Part shown: piece after piece, positions 4,933 through 42,075 of the stretch
Position numbering within the stretch: position 1 is the first letter of the stretch
How the letters are laid out: each line of letters starts with the position of its first letter
Origin: Dictyostelium discoideum
Lineage: Eukaryota
NCBI GenBank assembly: GCA_000004695.1
Contig: CM000152.2
Coordinates: forward strand, 448,001-512,000
DNA: 64,000 bases
Reading direction: 5' to 3'
The notes under the pieces: model-generated
What the model saw: the letters and a program-made list of their open reading frames with translations, nothing else
Told to the model about the DNA's origin: nothing
Databases searched by the model: none
Made by a program: the position numbers and the translations under genes

Positions 4933-4972
<40 letters not shown>

Positions 4973-5173
4973 GGTTGTTGTTGTTGTTGTGGTTGTTGTT
5001 GTTGTTGTGGTTGAGGTTGTTGTTGTGGTTGAGGTTGATGTTGTTGATGTGGTTGTTGTGGTTGATGATGGTGTTGTTGTTGTGGTTGCTGTTGATGTTG
5101 ATGTTGTGGTTGTTGCGGTTGTTGTGGTTGTTGCGGTTGTTGTTGTTGTGGATGATGATGATGATGATGATGA

Positions 5174-5227
<54 letters not shown>

Positions 5228-5813
5228 GGTTGTTGTTGTAGTTGTTGTTGTTGGTGTTGATGTTGTTGTTGTTGTTGATGTAGTTGGTGTTGATGTTGTT
5301 GATGTTGAATTTGGATTTGTTGATGTTGTAGTTGTTGATTTTGTTGTTGTTGTAGTTGTTGGTGATGTTGAAGTTGTAGTTGTTGTTGAATTTGGATTTG
5401 TTGTTGTTGTAATTGTTGTTGGATTTGTTGTTGGATTTGTTGGTTTTGGTGAACAGACATATGTGTGAGATGGTTTTGATGTTGTGGTTGATGTTGTTGT
5501 TGGATTTGAGATGGTGGAAATTGTTGGGAAATTGGTTGGTTGTTACCAACTTGTATAGTTTTTTCATTTTTTATTTGATTATCAAATTTAGTTGGAGATA
5601 ATTGTTGTGGACTTGTGTTGTTGTTATTGCTGTTATGATTGTTTGAAAAATTATTTTGAGATGATAAGGTTAAAACAGATGATTGAGAGGATTGTAATTG
5701 TGGAGGTGAATTTAAATGTTGAGTTGACGATGATAATTGGTTTGGAACATGAGGTTGTGATGAACTTAATTCATTATTATTATTTATATTATTATTACCT
5801 ATTATTGTTATTA

Positions 5814-5891
<78 letters not shown>

Positions 5892-5931
5892 CCATTTGTT
5901 TGGCCATTATTATTACTATTATTATTATTAC

Positions 5932-5962
<31 letters not shown>

Positions 5963-6339
5963 GTTGTTGTTATTGTTATTGCTATTATTATTATTATTGT
6001 TATTATTATTACTACCATTTATTCTATTATTATTATTATTGTGTAATGGTGGTTGCTGGATTTGTAATTGCTGAATATTATTCATAAATGATATCATTTG
6101 TTGGTTATTATTATTATTATTTAAAGATGAAGAGGATGATGAAGAAGATGATGAAGAGGATGGTGGTTGTGGTAATGGTACTTGGTTGTTGTTACTATTT
6201 ACAAAGATTGGGTCGTTTAGTTTATTTGTTTTATTATTGTTGTTCCAAATTGGTTCTTCCTTTTTATTCGATAAAGATAATAGTGATCCGATGTGAATAG
6301 AACCATTTGAATAATTATTATTATTATTTGAGTTGGAAC

Positions 6340-6394
<55 letters not shown>

Positions 6395-6535
6395 GTTGTT
6401 GTTGTTGTTGTTACTACCGCTATTATTATGATTAAAATCACTTGGTGTAGTTGATTTCGGATTTGCTAATGATAGCAATGAATATAAATCTTCGTGGTCG
6501 GGAACTGAATGAAATGATTTTAATGATTCATTCAT
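4551..6535 (-). CDS. Exon 1 of a large poly-N/poly-Q protein gene (whole gene 708..6535). Coding frame changes inside an (AAT)n tract near 5798-5830.
   Basis: ORF 5795..6535 (MNESLKSF..., poly-N/S) and ORF 4546..6018 (poly-Q, ...ICCKCNNKQNVG) overlap in different frames. Only the poly-N frame is plausible upstream of ~5830, because the other frame gives poly-I. The donor GGTTAGT at ~4550 coincides with the ORF stop. Upstream of 6535 is homopolymer intergenic DNA. Confidence 0.45.
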
Positions 6536-6542
6536 TTTGCTT

Positions 6543-6573
<31 letters not shown>

Positions 6574-6812
6574 TTTTATTTTATTTTTAAAATAATAATA
6601 GAATTAATACTTATTAAGAATTATATTTATTTTTATTATTAAAATTTTATTTTTACTATTTTGGAATTTTGGGGGTTTGATTGGAATATTTTATTTTTTT
6701 TTTTTTTTTTTTTAAAAAAAAATATTTAAGTGTATATTTAAATATATACAGGTGAATTTAGATTAACTACAAAAAGTTTAATTATTTATTTTATTATTAT
6801 TATTATTATTTT

Positions 6813-7176: not shown

Positions 7177-8367
7177 AAAGGATTTAAAATAACAATAAAA
7201 ATAAAAATATATATATTTGTATAAATGGGTGTGTGTTTAATTTAACAAAAAATACAATTAAAAAATTAAATAAATAAAATAAAATTAAAAAAAAAAGAGA
7301 AAAAAAAAAAGAGAGAAAAAAAAAAAAAAAAATTAAAATTATAATTTATTGGTAGTTAAAAATAGCAACAAGAATATATATATATATTATATTTGTTGTT
7401 GGATGGTTAAATAATATTAAAAAAAAAAAAAAAAAAAATTGTAGTAATAATAATATTATTATTATTATTTTTATTATTATTTTTATTATTATTTTTATTA
7501 TTATTCCTTTGATGTGATGATATAAAATAATTAATATAAAAAGGAATTTATTTGGGGTTTTATTGGAGTTTGAGTGTATGTGCAGTAAGTAACACACAAT
7601 TTTTTTATCTTATCTATACACCACATTTAAAACCACTTTTATTGTGTTTTTTTTTTTTTTTTATTTTTTTTTTTTTATTTTTTTTTTTTTGTTGTTGTTG
7701 TTATTGTTATTGTTGTTTGAATTAATTGTATTATTATTTTTTTAATGATGGTGAGTTTATCAACATCAAACTTGATCTTTTAAAAAAACAATAAATAAAT
7801 AAATAAATAAATAAAAAAAAAAATGGAAAAAAAAAAAAAAAAAATAAAATAAATATTTATTTAATGATAGTAATAATAATTATTCGTAACCATCAAAGAT
7901 AAAACAACTTAAATGATAGAGAGAACTGGGTTAAGGTGAGTGGGTGAGTGTTTGAGAGTGTGTGAGTGTTTTTTTTTTTTTATTTTTTTTTTATTTTTTT
8001 TTTTTTTCTTTATTTGTGTGTTTTTATTTCTTTAAATATAACATTTTAATTTTATTTGTGCACACACACATTCATTAAGTATCAATTGTGAAGTTTAAAT
8101 GGAAATGTGGGGTGAGTTTGAAATGGGTGAGTGGGTTAGTGTGTGAGAGAGAGCGTGTTTAATATAGATATATGTTTGTGAGAGAGGAAAAAAACGAGAT
8201 TATGAGCGAGAATACTGTTTGTTTTAGATAATAGGGTTCCCTTGAAGTGGGGTTTATGAGTGTGAAAAGTGAGTTTGAGTGTGGAATGTGTGTGTGTGTG
8301 TGGTAATTTTATATATATTATGTACAAATATTTAATTTAAAATTATATGTATTATTTGTGAGGGGTG

Positions 8368-11971: not shown

Positions 11972-12432
11972 ATAACATTAAAATTTAAAAATGATAATGG
12001 TAAAGAACCATTAATATTTGGAGTTGAAACAGATGCAGATGCATCAGAGATTGTTTTGGCAATTGATTATTTATTTACATTGAATTTTCCAGGTATGCAA
12101 TCAAATAGATTAAAGATTACAGTACCAGAACCAAAGAGAACCGAAATTTATAGTTCACCAAATGCATTGATACCAGATATGGGAGCATGTGGAGGATTCA
12201 CTTTAACTTATTTCTCAATGTGTGATCATATGAACATTCAACCAATTAGTGAAGTATCTTGGCATATTGAAAATGTTATCTCTGGTACATTAATAAGAGA
12301 ATTCGATTATGGTTTCTTTTTTAAAAAAGAAAGAATCATCACTGCTGACGCAAGACCAATCATGGCAGCATTATCAATTAATCCTTATTTTAATTCATTT
12401 TCAATTAAAGATATTAAATTATCAAGTGAATG
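11972..12432 (+). CDS. CARMIL-family protein, exon 3 (...LNFPGMQSNRLKITVPEP...GACGGFTLTYFSMCDHMN...).
   Basis: ORF 12056..12436 frame. The FPG... and G.CGGF...Y..C.. motifs match the CARMIL/LRRC16 N-terminal linker. The GGTAATC donor coincides with the ORF stop. Confidence 0.65.
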
Positions 12433-12524
12433 GTAATCATCATTATAATAATAATAATAATGATAATTAATAATATATATATATATATATATATATTAAT
12501 ATTTATTTATTTTATTTTATATAG

Positions 12525-13950
12525 TATTTTTTCAATAATTGGTTTAATTAATCAAAATTTATATTTTACAAAATTAGTATTAAATGGTATTGGATTAGAT
12601 AGATCAACAACAGAGAAATTAATTGAGGCATTTAATAGTAATAAAATGATACCATTGAGAGAATTAGATCTTGGTAATAATTCAATTGAGGATAAGGGTA
12701 TGATGGTTTTGGGTGAATATTTAAAGGTTACACCATATGAATTGAAAAGTTTAATATTGAATAATTGTTCAGCCGGTAAGAATTCAATGACAGTGATTGG
12801 TGAAGCAGTTTCTAATAATGAAAATATTTTAAAGAATTTAAAGTATTTGGATGTCAGTGGTAATAGATTAGAGAATGATGGGTCATCATCATTTTCAAAG
12901 CTATTGGAGAGATCAAAAGTGTTGTCTACTTTTTTAATTGGTAATAGTAATCCACAGTTTCATCAACTTTCAAAGGTTTGTATATCGTTGACTAAATTTG
13001 ATAACTCTGGTAATAGAATCACGAGAAAGGATAACATTCACAGAGATATGGTTAGCTTTTTAAATCATTCCATCTATCTATCGAGTTTGAATCTATCAAA
13101 ATGTCAAATTCCAGTGGAGGCAGTCGCCGATATCTTTGGCGAGGGTAACCTAATCAAATTGGAGACTTTGAACATCTCTGACAACGATTTGGGCGACGAG
13201 GGCATAACGATCCTCTGTGATTTCATGGCAAACCATCAAAGTATTCGTAATTTAGATCTTAGTGGTAACTTTTCAAAGAGAACTAAAGCTAGACAAACCG
13301 CTATAGAATCCATTGTTAATATGTTGGAAAAGAAATCAAAGACTCACAATTCCATACGTTCTTTGATTTTAAACAGTGGTTACACCGGTGGCGGTAGTAG
13401 CAGTAGACAGTTGAAGGGCGATCTATTGCCAATCGTATGCTCGGTGTTCTACAATGGCTCTTTGAAGGAGTTGGATATCAGTGGTCATTCAAGTGGCGAT
13501 ATTTTAGCAGCTGCAATTGGTAAACTCTTGCAATGTAACACTGGTTTGGAAACTCTCTATTTCGATGATAACTCTATTAGTAGTCGTGGTTTGACTTTAA
13601 TTAAATTTGGTTTACAAAGAAATACAACAATCACTCAATTACCATTACCAATTAAAGATATTGCTGCCTCTTTGAAAAGTGATGCAACTCCATTGAATCT
13701 TCAAAAGTTAACAGAGGTTTCAAATGAAATTCAACAAACTATCCTAGACAATTATACAAATAAAATTCAAGGTACAACTCTAACAAATAATTCAATTAAA
13801 ACTCAATCACTCTCTAGATCAAGAGCAAATTCAACTCCATTAGTAATTGATACAAAATCAACAATTGCAACTTGTGCTGGTTTAAATTCTTTTATTTCAA
13901 TTGATATTGATAATACAATTGAACCATTAGCAAATTTAATTGTTAATTAA
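12525..13950 (+). CDS. CARMIL-family protein, terminal exon: ribonuclease-inhibitor-type leucine-rich repeats (LDLGNNSIEDKGMMVLGEYL, LDVSGNRLENDGSSSF, LNISDNDLGDEGITILCDF, LDLSGNFSK...).
   Basis: ORF 12430..13950 frame after the acceptor ATATAG. Repeated L.L..N.I...G LRR units are visible. The stop at 13950 is followed by poly-A intergenic DNA. Confidence 0.7.
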
Positions 13951-18925: not shown

Positions 18926-19693
18926 TAGAAATTTAATTATTATTTAGTGGTTATAATTATGAAAAACATAGATATATTACAAAATAAGGGAAAATGAAGA
19001 AAATGTATATATAAAAAAATTCTAATTTTAAAAATTCAAAATTCGCAAAGAATTTATTTTTTTTTTTTTTATTTTTTGAATTTTTTTCATTTTAATTTTT
19101 TTTTTTTTTTTTTTGATCCTAATTTTAAAATTTTAAAATTAAAAAAAAAAAAAATATAATAATAAAAAAAAATAAAAATAAAAATAAAAACATCAACCCA
19201 TCATCTCACTCATCTAAAAATGCATTCATATATAAAGTGATTCTTTATTTGGTATTTTCTCATTTTTTGTGATTAATATTGAGATTGATAAAAAAAAAAA
19301 ATATTATTTATAGAAAATTTCTAATTATCAGCTTCAAATCCATTTTCACACACAATATTTTTTTATTTTTATTATTATTGTTATTTTTTTTTATTTTTTA
19401 TTTTTTTTTTTTTAAAAAATTAATAAATCTTTTTTTTTCATGTTTTTTTTTTTTTTTCTATAAAAAAAATAATAATCATACATCAATATTCACATATATC
19501 TAACTTTTTTTTATTTCCTTTTGAAAAAAAAATAAATAAAAAAAAAAAATAAAAAAAAAATAAAAAAATAAAAAAATAAAAATAAAAAAATAAAAAAAAA
19601 ACAGAATACATTTTTTTTTTTATTTAGATATCAATTTCAAATAATTTGTTTTTTATTTATTAATATTTTTTTTTTTTTTTTAACCACCATAAT

Positions 19694-19726
<33 letters not shown>

Positions 19727-19754
19727 TAAAAAAAAAAAAAGGTAAAAAAAAAAA

Positions 19755-19795
<41 letters not shown>

Positions 19796-19908
19796 TAAAA
19801 AAAAAAAAAAAGAAAAAAAAAAAACCAAGAAAAAAATAAAAATAATAATAACTATAAAAATAAACTAAAAATAAACTAAAAAAATAAAAAAAATAAAAAA
19901 AATAAAAA

Positions 19909-20011
19909 ATGGATATTTTATCTTTATTAAATAATGACAATGAAAACGATAGTTTTGATTTTCCATATATAAAAAATAATAATAATAATAATAAAAATAA
20001 TAATAAAAATG

Positions 20012-20042
<31 letters not shown>

Positions 20043-21343
20043 TGATTGTGATGAAATTTATAATAATATTATTAATAATAATAATAATAAAAATGGTGAA
20101 TATGAACATGAAACAAATTCAAATAAACCGGTGCTAACTCAACAATTAAAATTAAATATATCGAATGTTGATGTCTCCCAGTCTTCTTCAAATTCTTCAT
20201 CTTTGTCTTCCTCTCCAACTGTTCAAGTTGTGCCAACTCAGCTATTAGCAAATCAACTTTCACAACCATATACAATTAGTTCATCACAAGTTCCTAATAT
20301 TCAACCACAACTCCAACAACAACAGCCACAATCACAAAAACAAACTCAATCACTACCATCATCACCTATGTCATCACTAACTCCAAATATTCAGCAAGTC
20401 CAACAAAAAATACAACAATCAGTACAAACATCTCCTACAACTACACCAAGTAAATCAAATAAAAGTAAATGTCAACCAAAAAATGCACAACAAACAATTG
20501 GGCAAATACCATATATATATAATGGATCTTCTTCTTCTTCTTCTTCTTCTCAATATTCATCCTCTTCTTCAAATAATGAAGAAGAAGATATGGAAGAGAA
20601 ATTAAAAAATAGATCAATTGTTAAAGATAGAATTCAACAAAAGATGAGAAATCAATTAAATCTTTCATTTGCTGATACATCCAAAGAAACATTTGATCAA
20701 GTATTATCAATTCCCACTCCACCACCACCAACAACACCAAGATCAAAAAATACTCAACCAACCACACCACGTTCAACAAATTCATCAAGTCCTTTAACAT
20801 TACCAACTAAAACACCACCACAAACTCCAAGATCAACAAAAAATCAATCTTCACCACCACAAAGACAAAAAACACCTCCACCAATACATAATTTACAACT
20901 TTATTATCAACAACAACAAGAAAAACAACAACAAGAAAAACAACAACAACAATTAAAACAAGAACAATTAAAACAAGAGGAATTAAAACAAGAACAATTA
21001 AAACAAGAACAATTAAAATTAAAACAATTAAAACAAGAGGAATTAAAACAAGAACAATTAAAACAAGAACAAATAAAATTAGAACAATTAAAACAAGAAC
21101 AATTAAAACAAGAACAATTAAAACAAGAACAATTAAAAAAAGAACAATTAAAACAAGAACAAATAAAACAAGAACAATTAAAATTAGAACAAATAAAACA
21201 AGAACAATTAAAATTAGAACAATTAAAACAAGAGGAATTAAAACAAGAACAATTAAAACAGGAACAATTAAAACAACAACAAATAAAACAACAACAGGAG
21301 AAATCAATACAACAACAACAACTCCTTGAACAACAACTCCTTG

Positions 21344-23784: not shown

Positions 23785-25001
23785 TAACTACAAAATACAT
23801 TGAAAATATATTAAAACCTCAAGGAATGTCATTTGATCAATATTTTCAATTATTAAAAAAATCATTATTAAAACAAGATCAAACTAAAAGAGAATTTGAT
23901 TATAAAATTGATAAATATAAAAGAAAAAATAATAATAATATTAATAATAATAATGAAGATATTGAATTTATAATAATTATAATATTATCAGAATTTGATA
24001 ATATTAATGTAAAATCATCAATACCTTTAATTAAATTATCAAATCATTTCACTACATTTCAACATTATTTCGATTGGTTATTTGATAAATATCAATCATT
24101 ATCGTTACAAAATCAAACATTAACACTTCAAACCCAATCATTACAATCACAATTCAATCAATCATTAGAACAAAATAAATTATTTCAATTGGAAAAAGAT
24201 AGAATTGAATCCAATTTAATTGAAAAATTTATAATAATTTTAAATGAAAAAAAAAAGAAAATTAAAGAATATAAACAACCAATAAATAATTTATTATTAG
24301 AACAAAAATCTATATCATCATCATTATCAAATTGTAAATGTAACAATAATAATAATAATAATAATAATAAATCAATAGTGAATAATAATAAAAATAAATC
24401 ACCTTCAAAACAACAAGTTTATACAACTCCAAAGAAAAAGAAAAGGAATTATCAATCAAATTTAATTAATATTGATAATGATGACGATGATGATCTTGGA
24501 AATAATGATAATGTCAATAACATTAATGATGAAAATGATAATGATAATGATAATGATAATGAAGAAGATTATAAACCAACTTTTAATAATTCAACACCTC
24601 CATTATTAGATTTACTTAGTAATGATTATGATTCTTATTATAATGTACCTACAAATGTAAGAAAGAAGTTTAAACCCACCCCAACCCTGACCACAACAAC
24701 AACGACGACGACAACAACAACTACTGCATCCATAATCAAAACACCAACAAAGAAAAGAAATAGTATATCACCACAAAAATCACCTCATCACCATCGTAAT
24801 ATTAATATTAAAAAAAATAATAATAATAATAATCCTTCCTCTCCTATGAAAAAATATAATGCGAATGGTACCTTAATACCAAATAATAATATTAATTCTT
24901 TAATTCCAATCACCCCAATGAAATCGAAATCAAAGTTATTTAATTTTAATGATGATGATAACCATGACATTGGAGCTTCTGAATTATTAAATGATCTTTA
25001 A
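23785..25001 (+). CDS. xrcc4: XRCC4 homolog, exon 2 (coiled-coil stalk ...NLIEKFIIILNEKKKKIKEYKQ... plus N/D-rich and Ser/Thr-rich tail).
   Basis: ORF 23826..25001 frame extended to the acceptor AAATAG at 23783-23784 (phase 1). 'EKFIIILNEKKKKIK' parallels the XRCC4 signature 'KRFILVLNEKKTKIR'. Confidence 0.6.
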
Positions 25002-29808: not shown

Positions 29809-29816
<8 letters not shown>

Positions 29817-31848
29817 ACCTTAAAAGGTGTGATAAATTATTATGATTTGTAAAAAAATTATCAATGAATTTTCTATTATATCTTGAAGTTAAAATACGAG
29901 TAAATGATTTTGGGAATGATAAATTATCAAGTTTTGGACAACCAGATTCGAATGATAGACTAATGAGTGAACTTGGTAAAGATTGATTTGAAAATTCTTT
30001 AAAATAAGATTTATGAAATACTATTGATTCAATTGAAGATGGTAATGCATTTTCAAGTATTTGTTGAGTGTAGTCGTCAAAGAATTCAATGGATTTCAAA
30101 GTTGTGCTTGGTAAATAGCCAATTTCAAATACTCTATTAAAGTATCTTGCACATTTAAGTTTAGTAATTGGTAATTGTGATAGTGGGATTGAGTCGAAAT
30201 GAAAATCCCTTATTGTCAACTCCAACTCTTCAATGGTCTCGCCATTCAATGGTAAAAGATCCCTTGTCAAAATTTGGGTAAAAAACTGCCCGAATTTCAG
30301 TGATTTCAAATTCACACAACCTTTAATCGATAGTTTCTGATTAAACATTTCACCAAAATGTAATAGTTTAATCGATTTTGGTATTACTGAAATTGGTTGA
30401 TTAAATAATGAAGATGATTTAAATTTTAAGATTTCCAATTTAGTTAGCCCATTTAAAGCATAGGTAAAACTTTCATCATTAAATTTTGAACCAATTTCTA
30501 AATGAATTAAACCAGTTGGTAAAATATCATCACCTAATGAATTTGTAAAACTGTGTGGTAGAATCAACTTTTTTAAAGATTTAGGTAACGTTTCCTTTTT
30601 AAAATTACCATTCCAATCTTCAAATGATAATGATTCTAAATTTATGAATTCATTTAAAAAATCAATACTTTTTGATGATTCTAAATTTTTATAAAAATGT
30701 ATTGATTTTATTAATGGTTTAAAATCAATAAAATTATCATTATCATTATTATCATTATTATCATTATTATCATTAAATTCATTATTATAATTAAATTCAT
30801 TATTATTAAATAAATTAAATAAATTATTTAAAGAAGGTAAAATATTTTCTAATCCATGATAATCTGAAAATTGAATTTCTTTTAAGCTTGATGGAAACCA
30901 TGATGATGATGATGATGATGGGTTTTGATTTAAATTATGAAATTCAATATTAAATAAACGATTTGTTTTTGAATTACCAATTTTTAAAATTTGAATATTT
31001 GAATTTGAGAGTATTTCTTTACCAATATGATTATCTGAATAAAATAATAGATCTGGTATAAGTAGTTTCAAAGTTTTTAATGATTGAGGAAGTTTTTTAA
31101 TATCACCTCTTTTAATACATTCTCTACCAATTGCAAGTATTTCTAAATTTGGTAATTCTGAAATAATTTCAAATTGTTTAATTCTAGTATTTGATAATCT
31201 TAATGTTTTCAATGAATTTGGAAATTGGAAAGACTCTTTTGAAATTTTATTTGAAAAATCTGATAATTTAAAATATTCTAATTTATTTGGTAATTTAATT
31301 GGAATTGTTATTGTTGTTATATTTGGTGTATTATTCCTCGTCATTCCAAAATTAAAATCATCATCGCCATCAATATTATTATGATAAATATAATTTGTTA
31401 TTGTTGAAGAATCTTTTTTAAATTTTAATTTCTTTAAATTAATTAATTTTTGAAATCCTTTTGATTGATCTAATAGGTAATATCGGAAATGTGAACTAAA
31501 TATTAATGTGGTCAATGAATGAGTTGGTAAAATTTCACTTAAATCTTTTTCGAAATTTAGTGGTGAAAATGAATTTGAAAATTCTAAACATTCAATATTT
31601 GTATTCTTTAAAATGGTATCTAATGAATATTTATCACCACCTAATTCATAATCTTCATTTGATAAATTTAAATGAATTGATCTTAATAATTGTATATCAC
31701 CTTTATAATTTTTTAATTGAAAAAGTGTTAATGATTGTTGTTTATAATTATTATTAATTATCCTTAATTGATTAAATAAACAATTTTTAATTATTAAATT
31801 TCTAAAAATTTTTAAAAATAAATTATTATAATTATTATTATTATCCAT
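29809..31848 (-). CDS. FNIP-repeat protein (Dictyostelium FNIP family).
   Basis: 679-aa ORF. The N-terminus is MDNNNNYNNLFLKIFRNLIIKNCLF. It contains many ~22-aa repeats with an LP.SLK.L.FG..FNQ.I core (e.g. KSIKLLHFGEMFNQKLS, LKSLKFGQFFTQIL, LKSIEFFDDYTQQIL). Confidence 0.7.
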
Positions 31849-33511: not shown

Positions 33512-33983
33512 ATTTTATGGGCAAATTATACTTATATTAACCCAGATAAAGTTGGTGAAATTACAAATTCAAATCGTAATTATAATGTTAAAAAAGTTTC
33601 ACAAAGTCGTGATCGTTTCTGGATAATTACAATGGCTGATTGTGATCAAAAATTCATTGATGATCATAGAATTCCATTTGTATCGACCTATACATTTGAA
33701 GTTCAAAATAGTGGTGATTCATTCGATAGTCAATTATCAGCAGAACAACAATCAATTCCACAAGGTCAAATCTTTTTCTTCCTTTTATATACTGCATTTT
33801 TAATTATATCAATTATCTATTCAGTAGCTTTAAAGAAAAAAGGATTAGAAGGTAAAGCAATTCATTTCTTTATTGCAATTTTATTAATATTTTTAATTTC
33901 ACTTGCACTTTATATTTCAAATTGGGCACATATATTAAAATATCATAAATATGAATTAAGATATTTAAATCTTTTTGGTAATA
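33512..33983 (+). CDS. Same 7TM protein, exon 2.
   Basis: Acceptor TAATAG at 33510-33511. In frame with ORF 33632..34093. GTAAGT donor at 33984. It includes the first two TM helices. Confidence 0.45.
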
Positions 33984-34109
33984 GTAAGTTTTTTTTTTTT
34001 TATTATAATTTATTATTATTAATTTTTTATATTAATAAATATTTTTTTTATTTATATTTTTTTTATTTTTTTTATTTTTTTTTTTTTTTATAAGTTTTTG
34101 AAATTTTAG

Positions 34110-34678
34110 GTAATGGTTTATTTGTAGCATTAATTTTAATGATTGGCCAAGGTTGGACTACTTCAATTTATTTTGGATCATTAGTTAAACAAATGATAAA
34201 TATATTAGTTTCAATTGCATTGATTGTTATTGGGTGGGTTGCATATGTTTATTATGTTTATCATTCAAAGGAACAAAATAGTTATATTTATTTCATGGAT
34301 ACTTGTCCAGGTTACTTTTTATTGGCATTATATGTTGTAATCATTGGTTATTTCTGTTGGGCAAATTATGTAAATCGTAACAAACAAAATGAATCAATTA
34401 AAAAGAATTTTATTTTAATTTTTACAATCATCTTTGTATTTTGGTTAATTAGTCATCCATTGGTTGTAATCGTTGCTCATTTCATGGATCCATGGGTTAA
34501 ATATAAAGTCATCGCTTTATTAAATTTAACAATCAATGCAATCTTTTTCATCATTCTCTTAATAATTTTCCGTCCATCTCATAATAATATGATTGTTAAA
34601 ATTTTACAATCTGATGATAAATCAAATGATATGAAAGAAATTATTGAAAATGAAAAATCATATAATGGTGCAGATTAA
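34110..34678 (+). CDS. Same 7TM protein, exon 3 (TM3-TM7 plus a short tail).
   Basis: Acceptor TTTTAG at 34108-34109. The phase-1 junction is in frame with ORF 34139..34678. Seven hydrophobic helices are present in total. Confidence 0.45.
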
Positions 34679-36146: not shown

Positions 36147-36225
36147 ATGAAAATTACAAATTGTAAAATTGGATCGATAACTTATTTATTTATTATTTTT
36201 TTATTTTTATTATATAGTACAAATG
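36147..36225 (+). CDS. Exon 1 (signal peptide MKITNCKIGSITYLFIIFLFLLYSTNG) of a giant Cys-rich 7TM glycoprotein gene.
   Basis: ATG at 36147. GTAATT donor at 36226 (phase 1). Confidence 0.45.
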
Positions 36226-36273
36226 GTAATTATAGAATTTGAAAAAAAAAAAAAAAGAAAAAAATCTAATTTC

Positions 36274-36318
<45 letters not shown>

Positions 36319-36366
36319 AAAAATCTATTTTTTTTTTTTTTTTTTAAAATTTAATTTAATTTTTAG

Positions 36367-37383
36367 CGATTAATGTTAGATCAAGTAAATCAATTAAAAA
36401 AGATGTAAATATTTTAGGAGTAGATTTATCATATTCATTATTAGAGATAGAATTTGATGATGAATTTTTTACATATGATTCATTAGCATGTCCAAATTTT
36501 ACATGTGAATCAACTACTGCTATCGATTGTTCTTGTGACTATTCGAATATTGAAGATTGTCCAAAAGTTAAGGGTAGGGATAAGTCATGTCCACCATGTC
36601 CAGAAACATTTTTAGAACAAATTACAGAAGGACCTAATGGATACTTAGGAGGTGCATTTTGTAATCGGACTGTCTGGATCAACGGTACTAAATTTGAGCC
36701 ATTGTCAAAGAATTGGACAGTGATCGAATTAGATAAACAATACTCATACACTACGAATAAAGTCATGCAATTTAGGATAAAAGCAGACACAAAATCATGT
36801 ATGGGTATGATGCTAAAAGTATCACCAACTCAAAACTACCCAATCTCTGCATTTGGCTCAGTACCATCTTTCGAAATGGCAAGATTCGTCTCTGGCTCAA
36901 AACTTGAAACTAATGCAGTCTACAATATATGTCCATCCGATAATTGGAATAGAACTCAACATTATACATACACTAAAAGTTGGACAAGAGACACCTATTT
37001 CATAATGATCGATCCACAATCAGTCCTATCAACTTTTTCTTTAATTCTAAGATCAAAAAAAGTTGAACCTTTATTATTATCACCATCATCATCACCATCA
37101 TCATCATCATCATCAAATAATAATGATGATAATAATACTTTACAAAAAACTTGTAAATCAATGTATCCTTCAACTCATAGATGTATAAATTTAGGTGAAA
37201 ATACGTTTGGTGTAACAACAAATGAAAATCAAAGAAATTATTATACACTTTCAATCGATCAACCTTCAATTTATTTCTTTCAATTTCCATCATTATTTTT
37301 AACAACTTCAATATTTATTTCAGATTCTTTATTAAATTTATATCCAAATGAATCAACTTCACAATGGTTTAAAAAAGATTCTT
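36367..37383 (+). CDS. Exon 2 of the same gene: Cys-rich extracellular domain with N-glycosylation sites and a poly-Ser linker.
   Basis: Acceptor TTTTAG at 36365-36366. In frame with ORF 36702..37397. Proposed GTAATG donor at 37384. Confidence 0.45.
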
Positions 37384-37471
37384 GTAATGTATTATAATTA
37401 TTATTTTAATATTTTTAAAAAAAAACCAACAACCACAATATATTAATATGTATATTTATATTTATATTTAG

Positions 37472-40400
37472 ATGAAAATTATTTTACACTTTATTTAGAA
37501 CCAAAAAATAATAAAAGTGATTTAATAATTTATATTGGTGTATTTAGTTATTTACCAACAAATTATTCATTTTGTGTTACTAGAAATGGATTTATGTTTC
37601 CAAATTTACTTTCAGAAATGTCAATACAACAAGGTGCATTCTCATTAGCTTCGACGAGTATATTCTTACCAATTGGTAAGAATATGAATGATAGTGATTA
37701 TTTTTATACATGTAATAGTCAAGCAGAGTGTAACCCATTTTCAATATTATACCCAACAATTGATATTAATCCGCTTTGGCCAGTGCCACCAGTACTTTAT
37801 GGTGTTGAAGATTTTGATTTTAAAAGTGTTTTATATACAAGTGAGGGTTATCATGGATTTGGTATTATAAATTCGAAATTTAAATTAAGATCTTACCAAG
37901 TTGCAATACTATTAAAATATGATAATGGTAAAGGTGATAGAAAGGAGTATATCTCTTATGATGAGGTGTTGCAATCGTCAATTCAATTTCTTTCTACTTT
38001 AACCGACTCTAGAGGAAAGTTAATTGATTTTAAAGTTACAGGATTCCAAGATGTTACAAATATAACTTGTAATCATACTGAATTTAAAAGAGTGTTGGAT
38101 TTAGTGGACCATCAAAGTTCTTTGATTTTAAATAGTCTTGTTTCTCCATCATTGAATGAATTAAATAATTGGAGATATGAATTGGGCGTGTTAATGTTGA
38201 ATGACGCTTGGATTGGGTGCAGTAGTAAGGTAAAGGATATGTTGGATATTAGATTAGTTACAAAGAATATTTCATCCTATTTCTGTCCTTGGCAAGTGGG
38301 TGATATTGAATTCTCAACTGATCCATGTTGCAATTCAACTCATCAATATTATCGTTGTTGTAACCCGAGATATGTTGAAACTCAGGTATACGAATTCCAT
38401 GGTATTATCAATGACGTGGCACAGAATCAATGTAATTCAGACTCACTCGATTGTTCATTATCAGTGCTTGAAGAGTATGGCAATTATCTAACTACTGACG
38501 ACCAACTATGCGGCGATCCTTCCACCACATCCACCGAAATCCAATACTCGCTCTACTACTCCCTAAGAAATTGCAAAGACATCACATTGATACCACCATA
38601 TTGTAAGAATGATTCAGAGTGTACCCAATTCTCACCAAATGGGAGATGTGACCTTTTCACAAGGAAATGCTTCTTGGATTATGAAATATTGGATAGAATG
38701 TATGTTGATTGCATATTTCAAGAATTATCACCTGCAACTCTATTCTCATTTGTTTCATCAACTACTTTTAATAGTACAACAATTGATAATAAATATAAAC
38801 AACATTTCACTGATGATTGTGTTGGTTCAAAAGGTAGTAGTTTTCCAATTCGTACAACTTATGCCTATGCAACCAATGATCCATATGTTGGTATAATACC
38901 AGCTACAAATTGTCTTGACAAATCTTGTAAAACCATTTACAATTCATTATTTGATATTTATTATTCAGGTTGGACTTTTACAAGAGAATGGAGAGTTAAT
39001 GAAAATACTTGTTCAGATTTTGTAACATGTCCACAAATTAATTGTCAATCAACATTAAATCAAAATTTAAATTGTAAATATTTATGTGATCAACAAGATT
39101 CTTTAGATTTTTGTGGTTATTGTAGTAGTAGTAGTAGTGGTAGTATTGATAACACTACCACTACCAATAGTACATGTTTTAACTTTTTAGAATTAAATAA
39201 TTCAATATCATGCGAAAATAGTGATCCAATTTGTATATTATCAAATGGTGATTATTTATATAATCTTAGTAAAGAAGAATGTGAATTATCATCATCAATT
39301 GGTAGTTGTACTCATTCATGTGGATTCGAATGTATTGGTGTTAGTAGACTTTGTATATTTGGTGACTCTAATAAAACAACTTGTGAAAATAATGGTTACC
39401 TTTGGAATGGTGTTGATGGATATTGTGTTGATTTATCATCAACTACTGAAGAGCAATGTTATGGTAATTATAATGCATCTTCTTCTTCCTCATCCTCTTC
39501 TCCCTCTTCTGATAGTCGTCCACTTTGGGTAGATTGTCCAAATAGATCAACAGATCTATGTAGTGATGGTTTCTTTTGTGATCTTAAAGAGGTACCATGT
39601 AAAACTAAAGAACAATGTGAATCAATTGGTGGTGAATGTTCAGATATATTTTTCTTTAAACCAGAGAATGTTCAATATTATCCATTTGGATTTGGTAAAT
39701 GTGTTACAAATCATACATTCCTTCAAAGAGATAATTCAAAGACAGTATCTTGTCCAAATGGTCAAGTTGATTCACCAAATGGTTGTTTCTATCAATCACC
39801 GGTTTATAAAACAAAAGCTCAATGTTTAGATACACCAGGTAATAGATGGTGGACACCTTCAGATAATAGATCACAATGTCTATCGAATGAAAATCAAGGT
39901 TGTAGAATAATGGATGTGGATTCATTTGCAAATTTACCATTTAATTTCAAATTCAATGAAATGGATCAACATCAATGTGAAGGTTGTAGACAACTTTTAC
40001 CAAGTTCCTCCAAATGGACTGATAAATTCAAATGGACAAATGCAACTTGGTTACCTGGTATTCATATTGATAAACCAAAATGGTATAGAAATTTAACTTC
40101 AACCCCTCGTGTATTTAAATCAACATTTAACTATCAAAGTTTTTATCTAGATTTAGTTGATGCAGTTGGAAGACAAACTGCTGATTTCTATAGATCTCAA
40201 ACATTTTGTAAAAAAGAAAAGAATCAAAATAGTTTAAATTCATTAGTTTGTAGTTGTTCAGGTGATGCTGGTGGTGGTATAACAAATAATTGTTTTAATT
40301 CGTCAACTCCATTATTAGGTTTAACAAATCAATGTAATGGTGAATCATCTATATTAGGATTTGCAAATGGGTTTGTAAATTTAACTGATAATTCAGTATT

Positions 40401-41925
40401 ACCAGGTTGCCAAATTATAACCATTTCTTTAGTTTCAAAATCAATATTCACTTCAACAGTACCTGAATCATTGGCATCAAGTTTCGTATCCTATAATAAA
40501 CCTGATAACTATGGTGTAATCAATTCAAATGGTGCAATCATTGGTACACTATTAATGGATGGTATAATGATTAAATCTGAACAAAACATTCAATTGATGG
40601 TGGTATGTTTTGATATTACCAATATTGCACAGAGTGATAAATATCCATCTTTTGATTTCGCCACAAATTACAATAGTACAAGTGCAATGGGTTCCTTATA
40701 TCCAATGACTGTTGAAACTTATTTAGTCAAAGATCCCGATGGTATCACTTATATGTGTTCAAATCTATCAAATGTTCAACCGGAAACCATCATCTTTATG
40801 ATCAATATAATGGGTGGTGATTGGATGGATCAATCAAAAGAATTATTCGATTCAACTACAAAATCACTTTTATATTTCTTGGCTGTCCTATTCTTATTAA
40901 TTGGTTGTTTTGGTTGCTATCAAATAATTTTAATAATTTTCATTGGTTATAGATCGAAAAGTGGTAATAATATTAATAATACTAGTAGTGGTAGTGTTGG
41001 TGGTGGCGGTGGTGGTGGTATCGGTGGTGATCATCAAGTTCAAATAACTCATATTTTAACTGGACTAATAACATTGTTTATTATGTTAAGATCAATTTAT
41101 TTCTTTGTTATGCCAGGTGGCTATCTTTCATCTAGTCCCGTTGCAGATTATATTTTAGTGGTTTTACCAACATTTATTTATTTCTCAGCTTTTATAGTTA
41201 TGATAGTGATTTGGTATATCATTGTATTCATGGTGTTAAAGAATTATTCAATGGCAGGCTCAAGAACTAAAAGACTCTATACTATTGTTTTCGGTGTAAA
41301 TGTAGTGCTATATATACTTTTCATCATTGTAGTACTAGTATTCCAATATACTCATTATTCACCAAACAATTATTGTGGCGCAAGAGTTGTTGTGCAAATG
41401 AAAAATTCCAAACCCCAAATTATAGTCTCCATTCTTTACGCTGTAATTCAAGCTATCCTTTCACTTGTACTAGGTTCATCATTTGCATACCTCGGTTCTT
41501 CTTTATATTTAACTTTAAAAAAGGCTAATTTCTCTTCACTTAAAGCTTCTAGAAGCTCACAAAAATCAATTAGAATTTTCATTTTAACAGTGGTTTGTAG
41601 TATTGGTTTCTTATTACATTGGGTTTTTATATTAATTTTGGTAAGCTCAGAAATCAATTCAATAGCTTTCACTTTTGTTGGTTTATTATTAACTGAAATT
41701 TTACCAGCTGCCTCAATATTGTATTGTTTTCAAACAAGAAATAATCAAAATAATGAAACAACTCTCAATAGTGGTAAAAATTTCCCACTCTCTTCTCTTG
41801 GTTCAACAAAAACTAAAAAATTAAAAACAAAATCACCAAATTTACCAATTATTAATTATAACTCTAATAGTGTACCACCTTCTCCAATTATAGAACCAAC
41901 TAATAATAATAATAATAATAATAAC

Positions 41926-41959
<34 letters not shown>

Positions 41960-42075
41960 GTAATAATATTAATAATGATAATGATAACAATAATAATCAA
42001 CAAAATTCATTATCTATGGGTGTAAATCAAGAAAGAAATAATATTAATTCAAGTAATGAAATAAATAATATTTAA
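37472..42075 (+). CDS. Exon 3 of the same gene (or an independent gene starting at M 37594). It has a ~1100-aa Cys-rich N-glycosylated ectodomain, 7 TM helices and an N-rich cytoplasmic tail.
   Basis: 1493-aa ORF 37594..42075. Its frame stays open and coding-like upstream to the acceptor ATTTAG at 37470-37471. Seven hydrophobic segments lie between about residues 1090 and 1380 of the ORF. Confidence 0.6.

Follow-up and report, generated by a model that had tools for sequence, protein, structure and literature searches.

Positions 36147-42075 (+) of the 64,000-nt window analysed here (the whole stretch from 448,001 to 512,000 on the forward strand of Dictyostelium discoideum contig CM000152.2, GenBank assembly GCA_000004695.1) were confirmed to be a single three-exon protein-coding gene, whose product is a 1,899-aa membrane glycoprotein. 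A signal peptide is followed by a large Cys-rich ectodomain and, at the C terminus, by a seven-transmembrane (7TM) block that is linked by transitive homology to the THH1/TOM1/TOM3 family. A first-pass annotation had proposed one gene of ~1900 aa, joined from two open reading frames (ORFs). Homology, comparative genomics, selection and structure prediction back this proposal; its statements on the sequence stood, but its gene structure omitted a second needed intron, at 36226-36366. We consider it probable that this gene encodes an adhesion-type 7TM receptor which does without autoproteolytic activation at a G-protein-coupled receptor (GPCR) proteolysis site (GPS). The gene has the following features:

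36147..36225, + strand: exon 1, with the ATG at 36147, the signal peptide MKITNCKIGSITYLFIIFLFLLYSTN and the first base of the split Ala27 codon
36226..36366, + strand: intron 1, 141 nt, GTAATT...TTTAG, 7% G+C, poly-T/poly-A interior
36367..37383, + strand: exon 2, aa 27-366 with partial codons at both ends; N-terminal Cys-rich segment, first beta-sandwich and first half of the second beta-sandwich (after the orthologue model)
36723..37073, + strand: first predicted beta-sandwich, ~aa 146-262, approximate, transferred from the orthologue model
37173..37599, + strand: second predicted beta-sandwich, ~aa 296-408, spanning intron 2
37384..37471, + strand: intron 2, 88 nt, GTAATG...TTTAG, 11% G+C
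37472..42075, + strand: exon 3, aa 366-1899 and the stop at 42073-42075; rest of the ectodomain, 7TM block and Asn-rich tail
38293..40080, + strand: central Cys-rich region, ~aa 640-1235, with invariant Cys (DPCCNS...YYxCCNP, FCGYC and others)
40348..40809, + strand: predicted juxtamembrane beta-sandwich, aa 1325-1478 (AlphaFold (AF2) model m597f804813ac, strands 90-243, predicted local distance difference test (pLDDT) 70-88)
40852..41727, + strand: seven-TM domain, aa 1493-1784, THH1/TOM1/TOM3-type, N-out/C-in; helix 8 at aa 1788-1798
41728..42072, + strand: cytoplasmic tail, aa 1785-1899, with a poly-Asn tract (translation)

The joined coding sequence has 5,700 nt and 1,899 codons, and translation of the spliced exons gave no internal stops. 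At intron 1, G+CG forms Ala27 and the frame is kept after the TTTAG ending at 36366. The join at intron 2 (37383/37472) is in frame as well, with T+AT giving Tyr366, just as had been proposed from donor 37384 and acceptor 37471; these exact sites agree with the homologues and with Dictyostelium citrinum. The stop of ORF 36702..37397, at 37395-37397, was indeed seen to overlap the read-through of the GTAATG donor at 37384, and that frame is really open from 36367. Downstream, the frame of the 1,493-aa ORF, expected to be open for ~120 nt ahead of its first Met, is open for 122 nt from Met 37594 back to the TTTAG acceptor, which ends at 37471.

Two other splice sites were tried and rejected. The donor at 36162 (GTAAAA) for intron 1, the choice of the D. 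citrinum annotation, loses the signal peptide, which both the D. dimigraforme orthologue and the paralogues keep, and an acceptor at ~37498 for intron 2 would remove the conserved YENxxTLYL. An exact-sequence look-up in a collection of 15 billion proteins found no identical entry for the 1,493-aa ORF and ten other ORFs of the window. The DNA of the window has a G+C content of 12-32%, with homopolymer-rich intergenic parts, short and AT-rich introns and coding regions with poly-Asn tracts.

A homology search with the spliced 1,899-aa protein as the query, with family members aligned in alignment A1, identified 14 dictyostelid homologues, which covered 93-98% of the query and were colinear across both junctions. 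The sequence around the intron-2 junction, WFKKDS-Y-ENYFTLYLEP, was colinear in all 14, Y/F-E/D-N being conserved and the D. citrinum orthologue being identical there. The syntenic locus of D. citrinum has the order FNIP-repeat gene, GPR180/TMEM145-like gene, studied gene, and both introns lie at identical positions; the counterpart of the AT-rich 88-nt intron suggested by the first-pass annotation reads GTATGT...TTAG there. Over the region, DNA identity to D. citrinum is ~80%. The last 84 nt of exon 2 were 98.8% identical without indels and the 122 nt of exon 3 before Met 37594 were 96.6% identical with one 3-nt indel, vs 71.3% for intron 2, with gap runs of 1, 67 and 3 nt. Exon 1 was 84.8% identical, with one 12-nt indel that keeps the frame, and intron 1 67.4%, with indels of 9, 7 and 10 nt and flanking exons at 85-91%. 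Against D. citrinum, the ratio of nonsynonymous to synonymous substitution rates (dN/dS) came to 0.127 in exon 2, 0.092 in exon 3 and 0.084 in the 7TM part, and this sequence comparison shows that both large exons are under purifying selection.

The D. citrinum orthologues KAN0007011.1 and KAN0031503.1 and the D. dimigraforme orthologue KAN0045391.1 share 87-90% identity with the product, lie in synteny and have the same exon structure. KAN0045391.1 (P0016) is annotated MKITNCKIGSITYLF...SNAINVISSKS, i.e., with the same join of exon 1 to exon 2. The two D. citrinum models start MNITN|S via the early GTAAAA donor and skip the signal peptide, and from the sequence both are probably mis-annotated at their 5′ end. 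An in-frame signal-peptide ORF is present yet skipped in these models (locus positions 8001-8300).

According to the AlphaFold model of the D. citrinum orthologue (90% identical), the junction Tyr sits between two neighbouring strands, WFKKDS at the end of exon 2 and YFTLYL at the start of exon 3, which are both part of one beta-sandwich with pLDDT of 72-87. Met 37594 falls within the last strand (GFMFPNL) of the same beta-sandwich, and a separate gene starting from this Met would therefore begin inside a folded domain.

The predicted signal peptide corresponds to a cleavable-looking hydrophobic segment at aa 3-26 (hydropathy), behind the ATG at 36147; the paralogues also carry signal peptides. 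The ectodomain of ~1,465 aa (aa 27-1495) contains 74 Cys and 31 N-x-S/T sequons, in agreement with the earlier description as Cys-rich and N-glycosylated, the sequons being predicted sites. A Pfam scan found no domain anywhere in the ectodomain, and a search for internal repeats with hhalign among five beta-rich ectodomain segments detected no similarity (probability <=0.3%). In the N-terminal model, made on the first 1,183 aa of the D. citrinum orthologue (mean pLDDT 66), small Cys-rich elements come after beta-rich domains, a helical region and a poorly modelled stretch. The model shows the two N-terminal beta-sandwiches in a predicted collagen-binding/PPC (SID1-ectodomain-like) fold. Their sequence identity to the collagen-binding (PPC-type) domains of clostridial collagenase and to the tandem beta-sandwiches of SID1/SIDT1/SIDT2 is just 7-16%; PF04151 has no match here, and this protein gives no sign of collagen, Ca2+ or RNA binding. 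Between the two sandwiches, a (TCA)n tract at 37080-37115 encodes a Ser-rich linker, whose length differs in the D. citrinum orthologue. The central Cys-rich region, without a Pfam match, was modelled in the orthologue as helical and small disulfide-knot-like elements (pLDDT 35-79). The last hairpin of the juxtamembrane sandwich, TYMCSNLSNV/ETIIFMINI, ends 14 residues before the first transmembrane helix (TM1), and C1411 and C1461 are conserved.

Seven transmembrane helices had been claimed for the C terminus, and seven hydrophobic segments are found at aa 1493-1784. The AF2 model of aa 1236-1800 (14 sequences, mean pLDDT 64) contains 7 TM helices plus helix 8. According to hydropathy and loop charges, the K/R-rich intracellular loops 2 and 3 (ICL2 and ICL3) fit an N-out/C-in topology. 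The modelled bundle superposes on solved GPCRs, suggesting a GPCR-like fold; no PDB entry matched in a profile search with the alignment of the C-terminal part. Many polar intramembrane residues are invariant in the alignment (R1572, D1591, N1642, Q1681, Q1692, H1748 and E1774), and E1774-x-x-P1777 is among the invariant TM residues common to the query and its family. ICL1 holds a Gly/Asn low-complexity insert, GNNINNTSSGSVGGGGGGGIGGD (aa 1529-1551, window ~40960-41028), of which D. dimigraforme has a longer and D. citrinum a much shorter version; deleting the insert gave no Pfam match. The poly-Asn of the tail is encoded by an (AAT)n tract at ~41900-42010, again differing in length in the D. 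citrinum orthologue.

Pfam searches with the query itself found no family, whether with the whole protein (E<=1), with four segments of it, with the 7TM block (E<=10) or with the poly-Gly/Asn loop deleted. PF06454 (THH1/TOM1/TOM3) was matched by 13 of the 15 aligned family members, with a best E of 6.4e-14; P0003, P0007, P0010 and P0013 reached 26-46 bits vs a gathering score of 25, over model positions ~15-257 of 273. Over the juxtamembrane part and the 7TM block (aa 1236-1800), the query is 37-51% identical to PF06454-matching paralogues. On this sequence evidence the 7TM block is a divergent THH1/TOM1/TOM3 member by transitive homology, sharing with that family a homologous 7TM, a seven-helix GPCR-like fold and common invariant TM residues. 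Plant TOM1 and TOM3 have ~290 aa and are not known to carry a large ectodomain, whereas in the present protein the 7TM comes behind a signal peptide and an ectodomain of ~1,465 aa. The known role of plant TOM1 as a scaffold for the tobamovirus replicase and ARL8 is plant-specific. Plant TOM1 and TOM3 are described as seven-pass transmembrane proteins (PMC3234234).

A profile of the ectodomain (aa 367-1490), run exhaustively with HMMER against 1.84 billion representatives, recovered 896 relatives at E<=1e-3, of which 513 reached E<=1e-10 and 192 reached E<=1e-30; many of the relatives are 1,500-1,800 aa long and matched from end to end. Word-indexed searches had found dictyostelids only. The relatives include further D. 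purpureum and Cavenderia paralogues and, beyond Dictyostelia, Protostelium nocturnum transcripts, Planoprotostelium fungivorum PRP79187.1 and metagenome and Logan contigs. The paralogues DDB_G0293176 and DICPUDRAFT_74855 are 30-44% identical and colinear over their full length, and alignment A1 has ~90 invariant Cys, Trp and Pro columns. The 7TM content was checked in the best 150 listed of the 896 relatives, and most of these had the same 7TM; in a local search with the family 7TM profile, a homologous 7TM directly followed the ectodomain in 109 of the 165 proteins compared. At the sequence level this shows a large amoebozoan family with an ectodomain-plus-7TM layout. The N-terminal domains encoded by exon 2 co-occur with the remainder mainly within Dictyostelia. 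Among the relatives without a match to the 7TM profile, some have seven divergent hydrophobic segments and others a single TM or a GPI (glycosylphosphatidylinositol)-like tail; the ectodomain is therefore a module used on different anchors. P0086, P0089, P0090, P0098, P0105, P0118, P0133, P0149 and others end in a single TM and short tail or in a GPI-like hydrophobic C terminus.

Some long entries in this set deserve a remark. P0002 (D. citrinum, 2,711 aa) holds one and a half copies of the architecture and P0021 (D. firmibasis, 3,464 aa) two; both look like tandem paralogues fused by gene prediction. A Pfam search of distant long relatives (P0083, P0118 and others) found no informative signalling domains. 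The N-terminal kinase of P0083 seems to stem from gene-model fusion, and the UniRef name "guanylate cyclase" was not reproduced.

In the mechanism that we propose, the ectodomain would face the cell exterior or the lumen of an endocytic compartment, its beta-sandwich and Cys-rich modules would bind a macromolecular or surface ligand (matrix, glycan, particle or other cell), and the 7TM bundle would relay to partners in the cytosol, which would be heterotrimeric G proteins or, as in plant TOM1, small Arf-like GTPases. The protein would then work in the manner of an adhesion-type 7TM receptor, but with no activation by GPS autoproteolysis. We favour a receptor that binds a ligand or surface and signals through its 7TM because a secreted, disulfide-rich and sequon-rich ectodomain with binding-type beta-sandwiches is combined with a constrained 7TM of GPCR fold that has a buried polar network.

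Several points speak against this interpretation. Plant TOM1 proteins are endomembrane scaffolds and not proven GPCRs. The query and its D. citrinum orthologue stay below every Pfam threshold, that of PF06454 included, and the family placement therefore had to proceed via the paralogues. No DRY-type (class A) motif is present in the sequence at the cytoplasmic end of TM3. The structure models are of moderate confidence (mean pLDDT 64-66), with shallow alignments of 14-16 sequences, and the ectodomain was modelled on the D. citrinum orthologue, not on the protein of the window. The splice junctions are strongly inferred from sequence, and ligand binding, surface location and G-protein coupling are inferences only. 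The single genetic lead comes from restriction enzyme-mediated integration (REMI) and concerns the paralogue DDB_G0293176 (P0017, in the cluster of P0010), which is 32% identical to the studied protein; it is unconfirmed by knockout. REMI clones that did not respond to the chemorepellent AprA carried disruptions in 17 genes, this paralogue among them; the authors noted that their REMI genes need confirmation by targeted disruption and described DDB_G0293176 by its I-TASSER resemblance to NompC (PMC9073555).

With the same gene model, the 7TM could possibly serve as an anchor or scaffold, recruiting an Arf-like GTPase in the endolysosomal system, or the protein could be a pure adhesion or phagocytic receptor, active through its ectodomain and without G-protein coupling. 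Plant TOM1 is described as a 7TM scaffold, and the Arf-like GTPase ARL8 co-purifies with it (PMC3234234). The lack of a DRY-type motif would suit such a role, and the relatives with single-pass or GPI-like anchors indicate that the ectodomain can work on a simple anchor. However, the 7TM is under as much constraint as the ectodomain (dN/dS 0.084), many of its polar intramembrane residues are invariant, which goes beyond the needs of an anchor, and the pairing of ectodomain and 7TM was kept in most relatives compared. We gave the signalling receptor roughly twice the weight of the scaffold.

The layout of signal peptide, long modular ectodomain, beta-sandwich before TM1, 7TM and tail is the same as that of the class B2 adhesion GPCRs (e.g., latrophilins), and the first-pass annotation had described the protein fairly as adhesion-GPCR-like without a GPS motif. 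This likeness is one of layout, not of descent: adhesion GPCRs have a different 7TM family, and their ectodomain modules are unmatched in this protein. A true class B2 receptor, with GAIN/GPS autoproteolysis and a tethered agonist, is accordingly very improbable. The long adhesive-looking ectodomain, the beta-sandwich hairpin close to TM1 and the modelled GPCR-like fold would fit it, but the sequence contradicts it: 7tm_2 (PF00002) had no match at E<=10, neither Pfam nor the alignment revealed GAIN or GPS signatures, the family alignment has no conserved HL|T/S cleavage motif at the last hairpin before TM1, and the 7TM is homologous to PF06454. By sequence, the protein is not a class B2 adhesion GPCR. 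The subfamily of P0008, P0010 and P0011 carries C-S-N-I-T-H-L-[G/D/A] in the last hairpin before TM1 (A1 columns ~1650-1670), which only superficially resembles the GPS sequence C-x-C-x-H-L-T and is conserved neither in the rest of the family nor in the studied gene.

It is also highly unlikely that the locus is a family copy decaying into a pseudogene. Among the D. discoideum proteins found, none is more than 44% identical to the product, although the DNA of the window is ~90% identical to a D. discoideum assembly (window 13840-35188 against GCA_054859385.1, JBTAPF010000064.1 524235-545705), and the 7TM of the query falls below the Pfam thresholds. A protein search for the D. discoideum orthologue returned only the 32%-identical DDB_G0293176, and the compared D. 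discoideum locus ends ~1 kb before the gene. Against decay, the 5.7-kb frame is intact with canonical splice sites, dN/dS vs D. citrinum is 0.08-0.13 in all parts, and the family-invariant Cys and TM residues are all kept. Least probable of all are two genes, a secreted protein of ~370 aa ending at the TAA 37395-37397 and a 1,493-aa protein without signal peptide from Met 37594: both ORFs exist as such and an unspliced reading is compatible with the sequence alone, but the colinearity of 14/14 homologues over the junction, the 122 nt before Met 37594 at 96.6% vs the 88-nt gap at 71% with its 67-nt indel, the modelled beta-sandwich that holds both the junction and this Met, and transcriptome-derived homologues with ectodomain and 7TM in one ORF (Protostelium nocturnum P0068) effectively refute it even ahead of RNA data. 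Homology, synteny and introns, selection, annotation elsewhere and structure together thus make two genes very unlikely.

For annotation, it follows that the two ORFs are to be merged and that the two deposited D. citrinum models probably lack their signal peptide. The gene-model correction is sound, and it points to an uncharacterised, widespread amoebozoan receptor-like family. Its orthologues and paralogues have been deposited as "hypothetical" or "THH1/TOM1/TOM3 domain-containing", so that the sequences themselves are not new. The literature yielded no functional study of the family beyond the one unconfirmed REMI hit in a paralogue, and no paper was found describing the architecture of a TOM1-type 7TM with a giant ectodomain. 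In a GPCR survey of choanoflagellates, THH1/TOM1/TOM3 counts as a family of GPCRs that is known from plants. The most recent, phylogeny-wide survey of dictyostelid GPCRs mentions neither TOM1, THH1 nor PF06454, and no long N-terminal or GAIN domains are reported there for amoebozoan family 2 receptors (PMC10445921).

More tentatively, Amoebozoa may possess a large overlooked class of adhesion-type 7TM receptors, in which a TOM1-family bundle joined to a disulfide-rich ectodomain of ~1,400 aa would represent an independently invented adhesion-GPCR layout. TOM1-type proteins might then be ancestral surface receptors, whose members could sense matrix, prey or neighbouring cells, and the paralogue may act in AprA chemorepulsion. 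If the proteins are signalling receptors, the sensory repertoire of social amoebae is larger than catalogued, the native role of TOM1-type 7TM proteins becomes accessible in a genetically tractable system, and the family offers a case of convergent "adhesion receptor" architecture.

Immediately upstream (window 33632-34678, +) lies a 7TM gene of the GPR180/TMEM145 type, of which the ORFs 33632-34093 and 34139-34678 of the window appear to be two exons; PF10192 was found in the syntenic loci of D. citrinum (counterpart at 4935-6672) and D. discoideum (19411-20955). Two different non-canonical 7TM receptor-like genes thus adjoin each other, an arrangement that is kept in D. citrinum (the compared D. 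discoideum locus ends before the gene). On the other side, a small-GTPase gene downstream in D. citrinum was considered as ARL8, but ARL8 sequences gave no match and the assignment was dropped. Further genes of the window were assigned by Pfam:

12430-13950, + strand: leucine-rich repeat (LRR) protein
23826-25001, + strand: XRCC4-like protein, 87% identical to D. discoideum ACTFIR_007763
27574-29682, + strand: weak BUD22-like match
29809-31848, - strand: FNIP-repeat protein

The homologues of the window genes were all dictyostelid.

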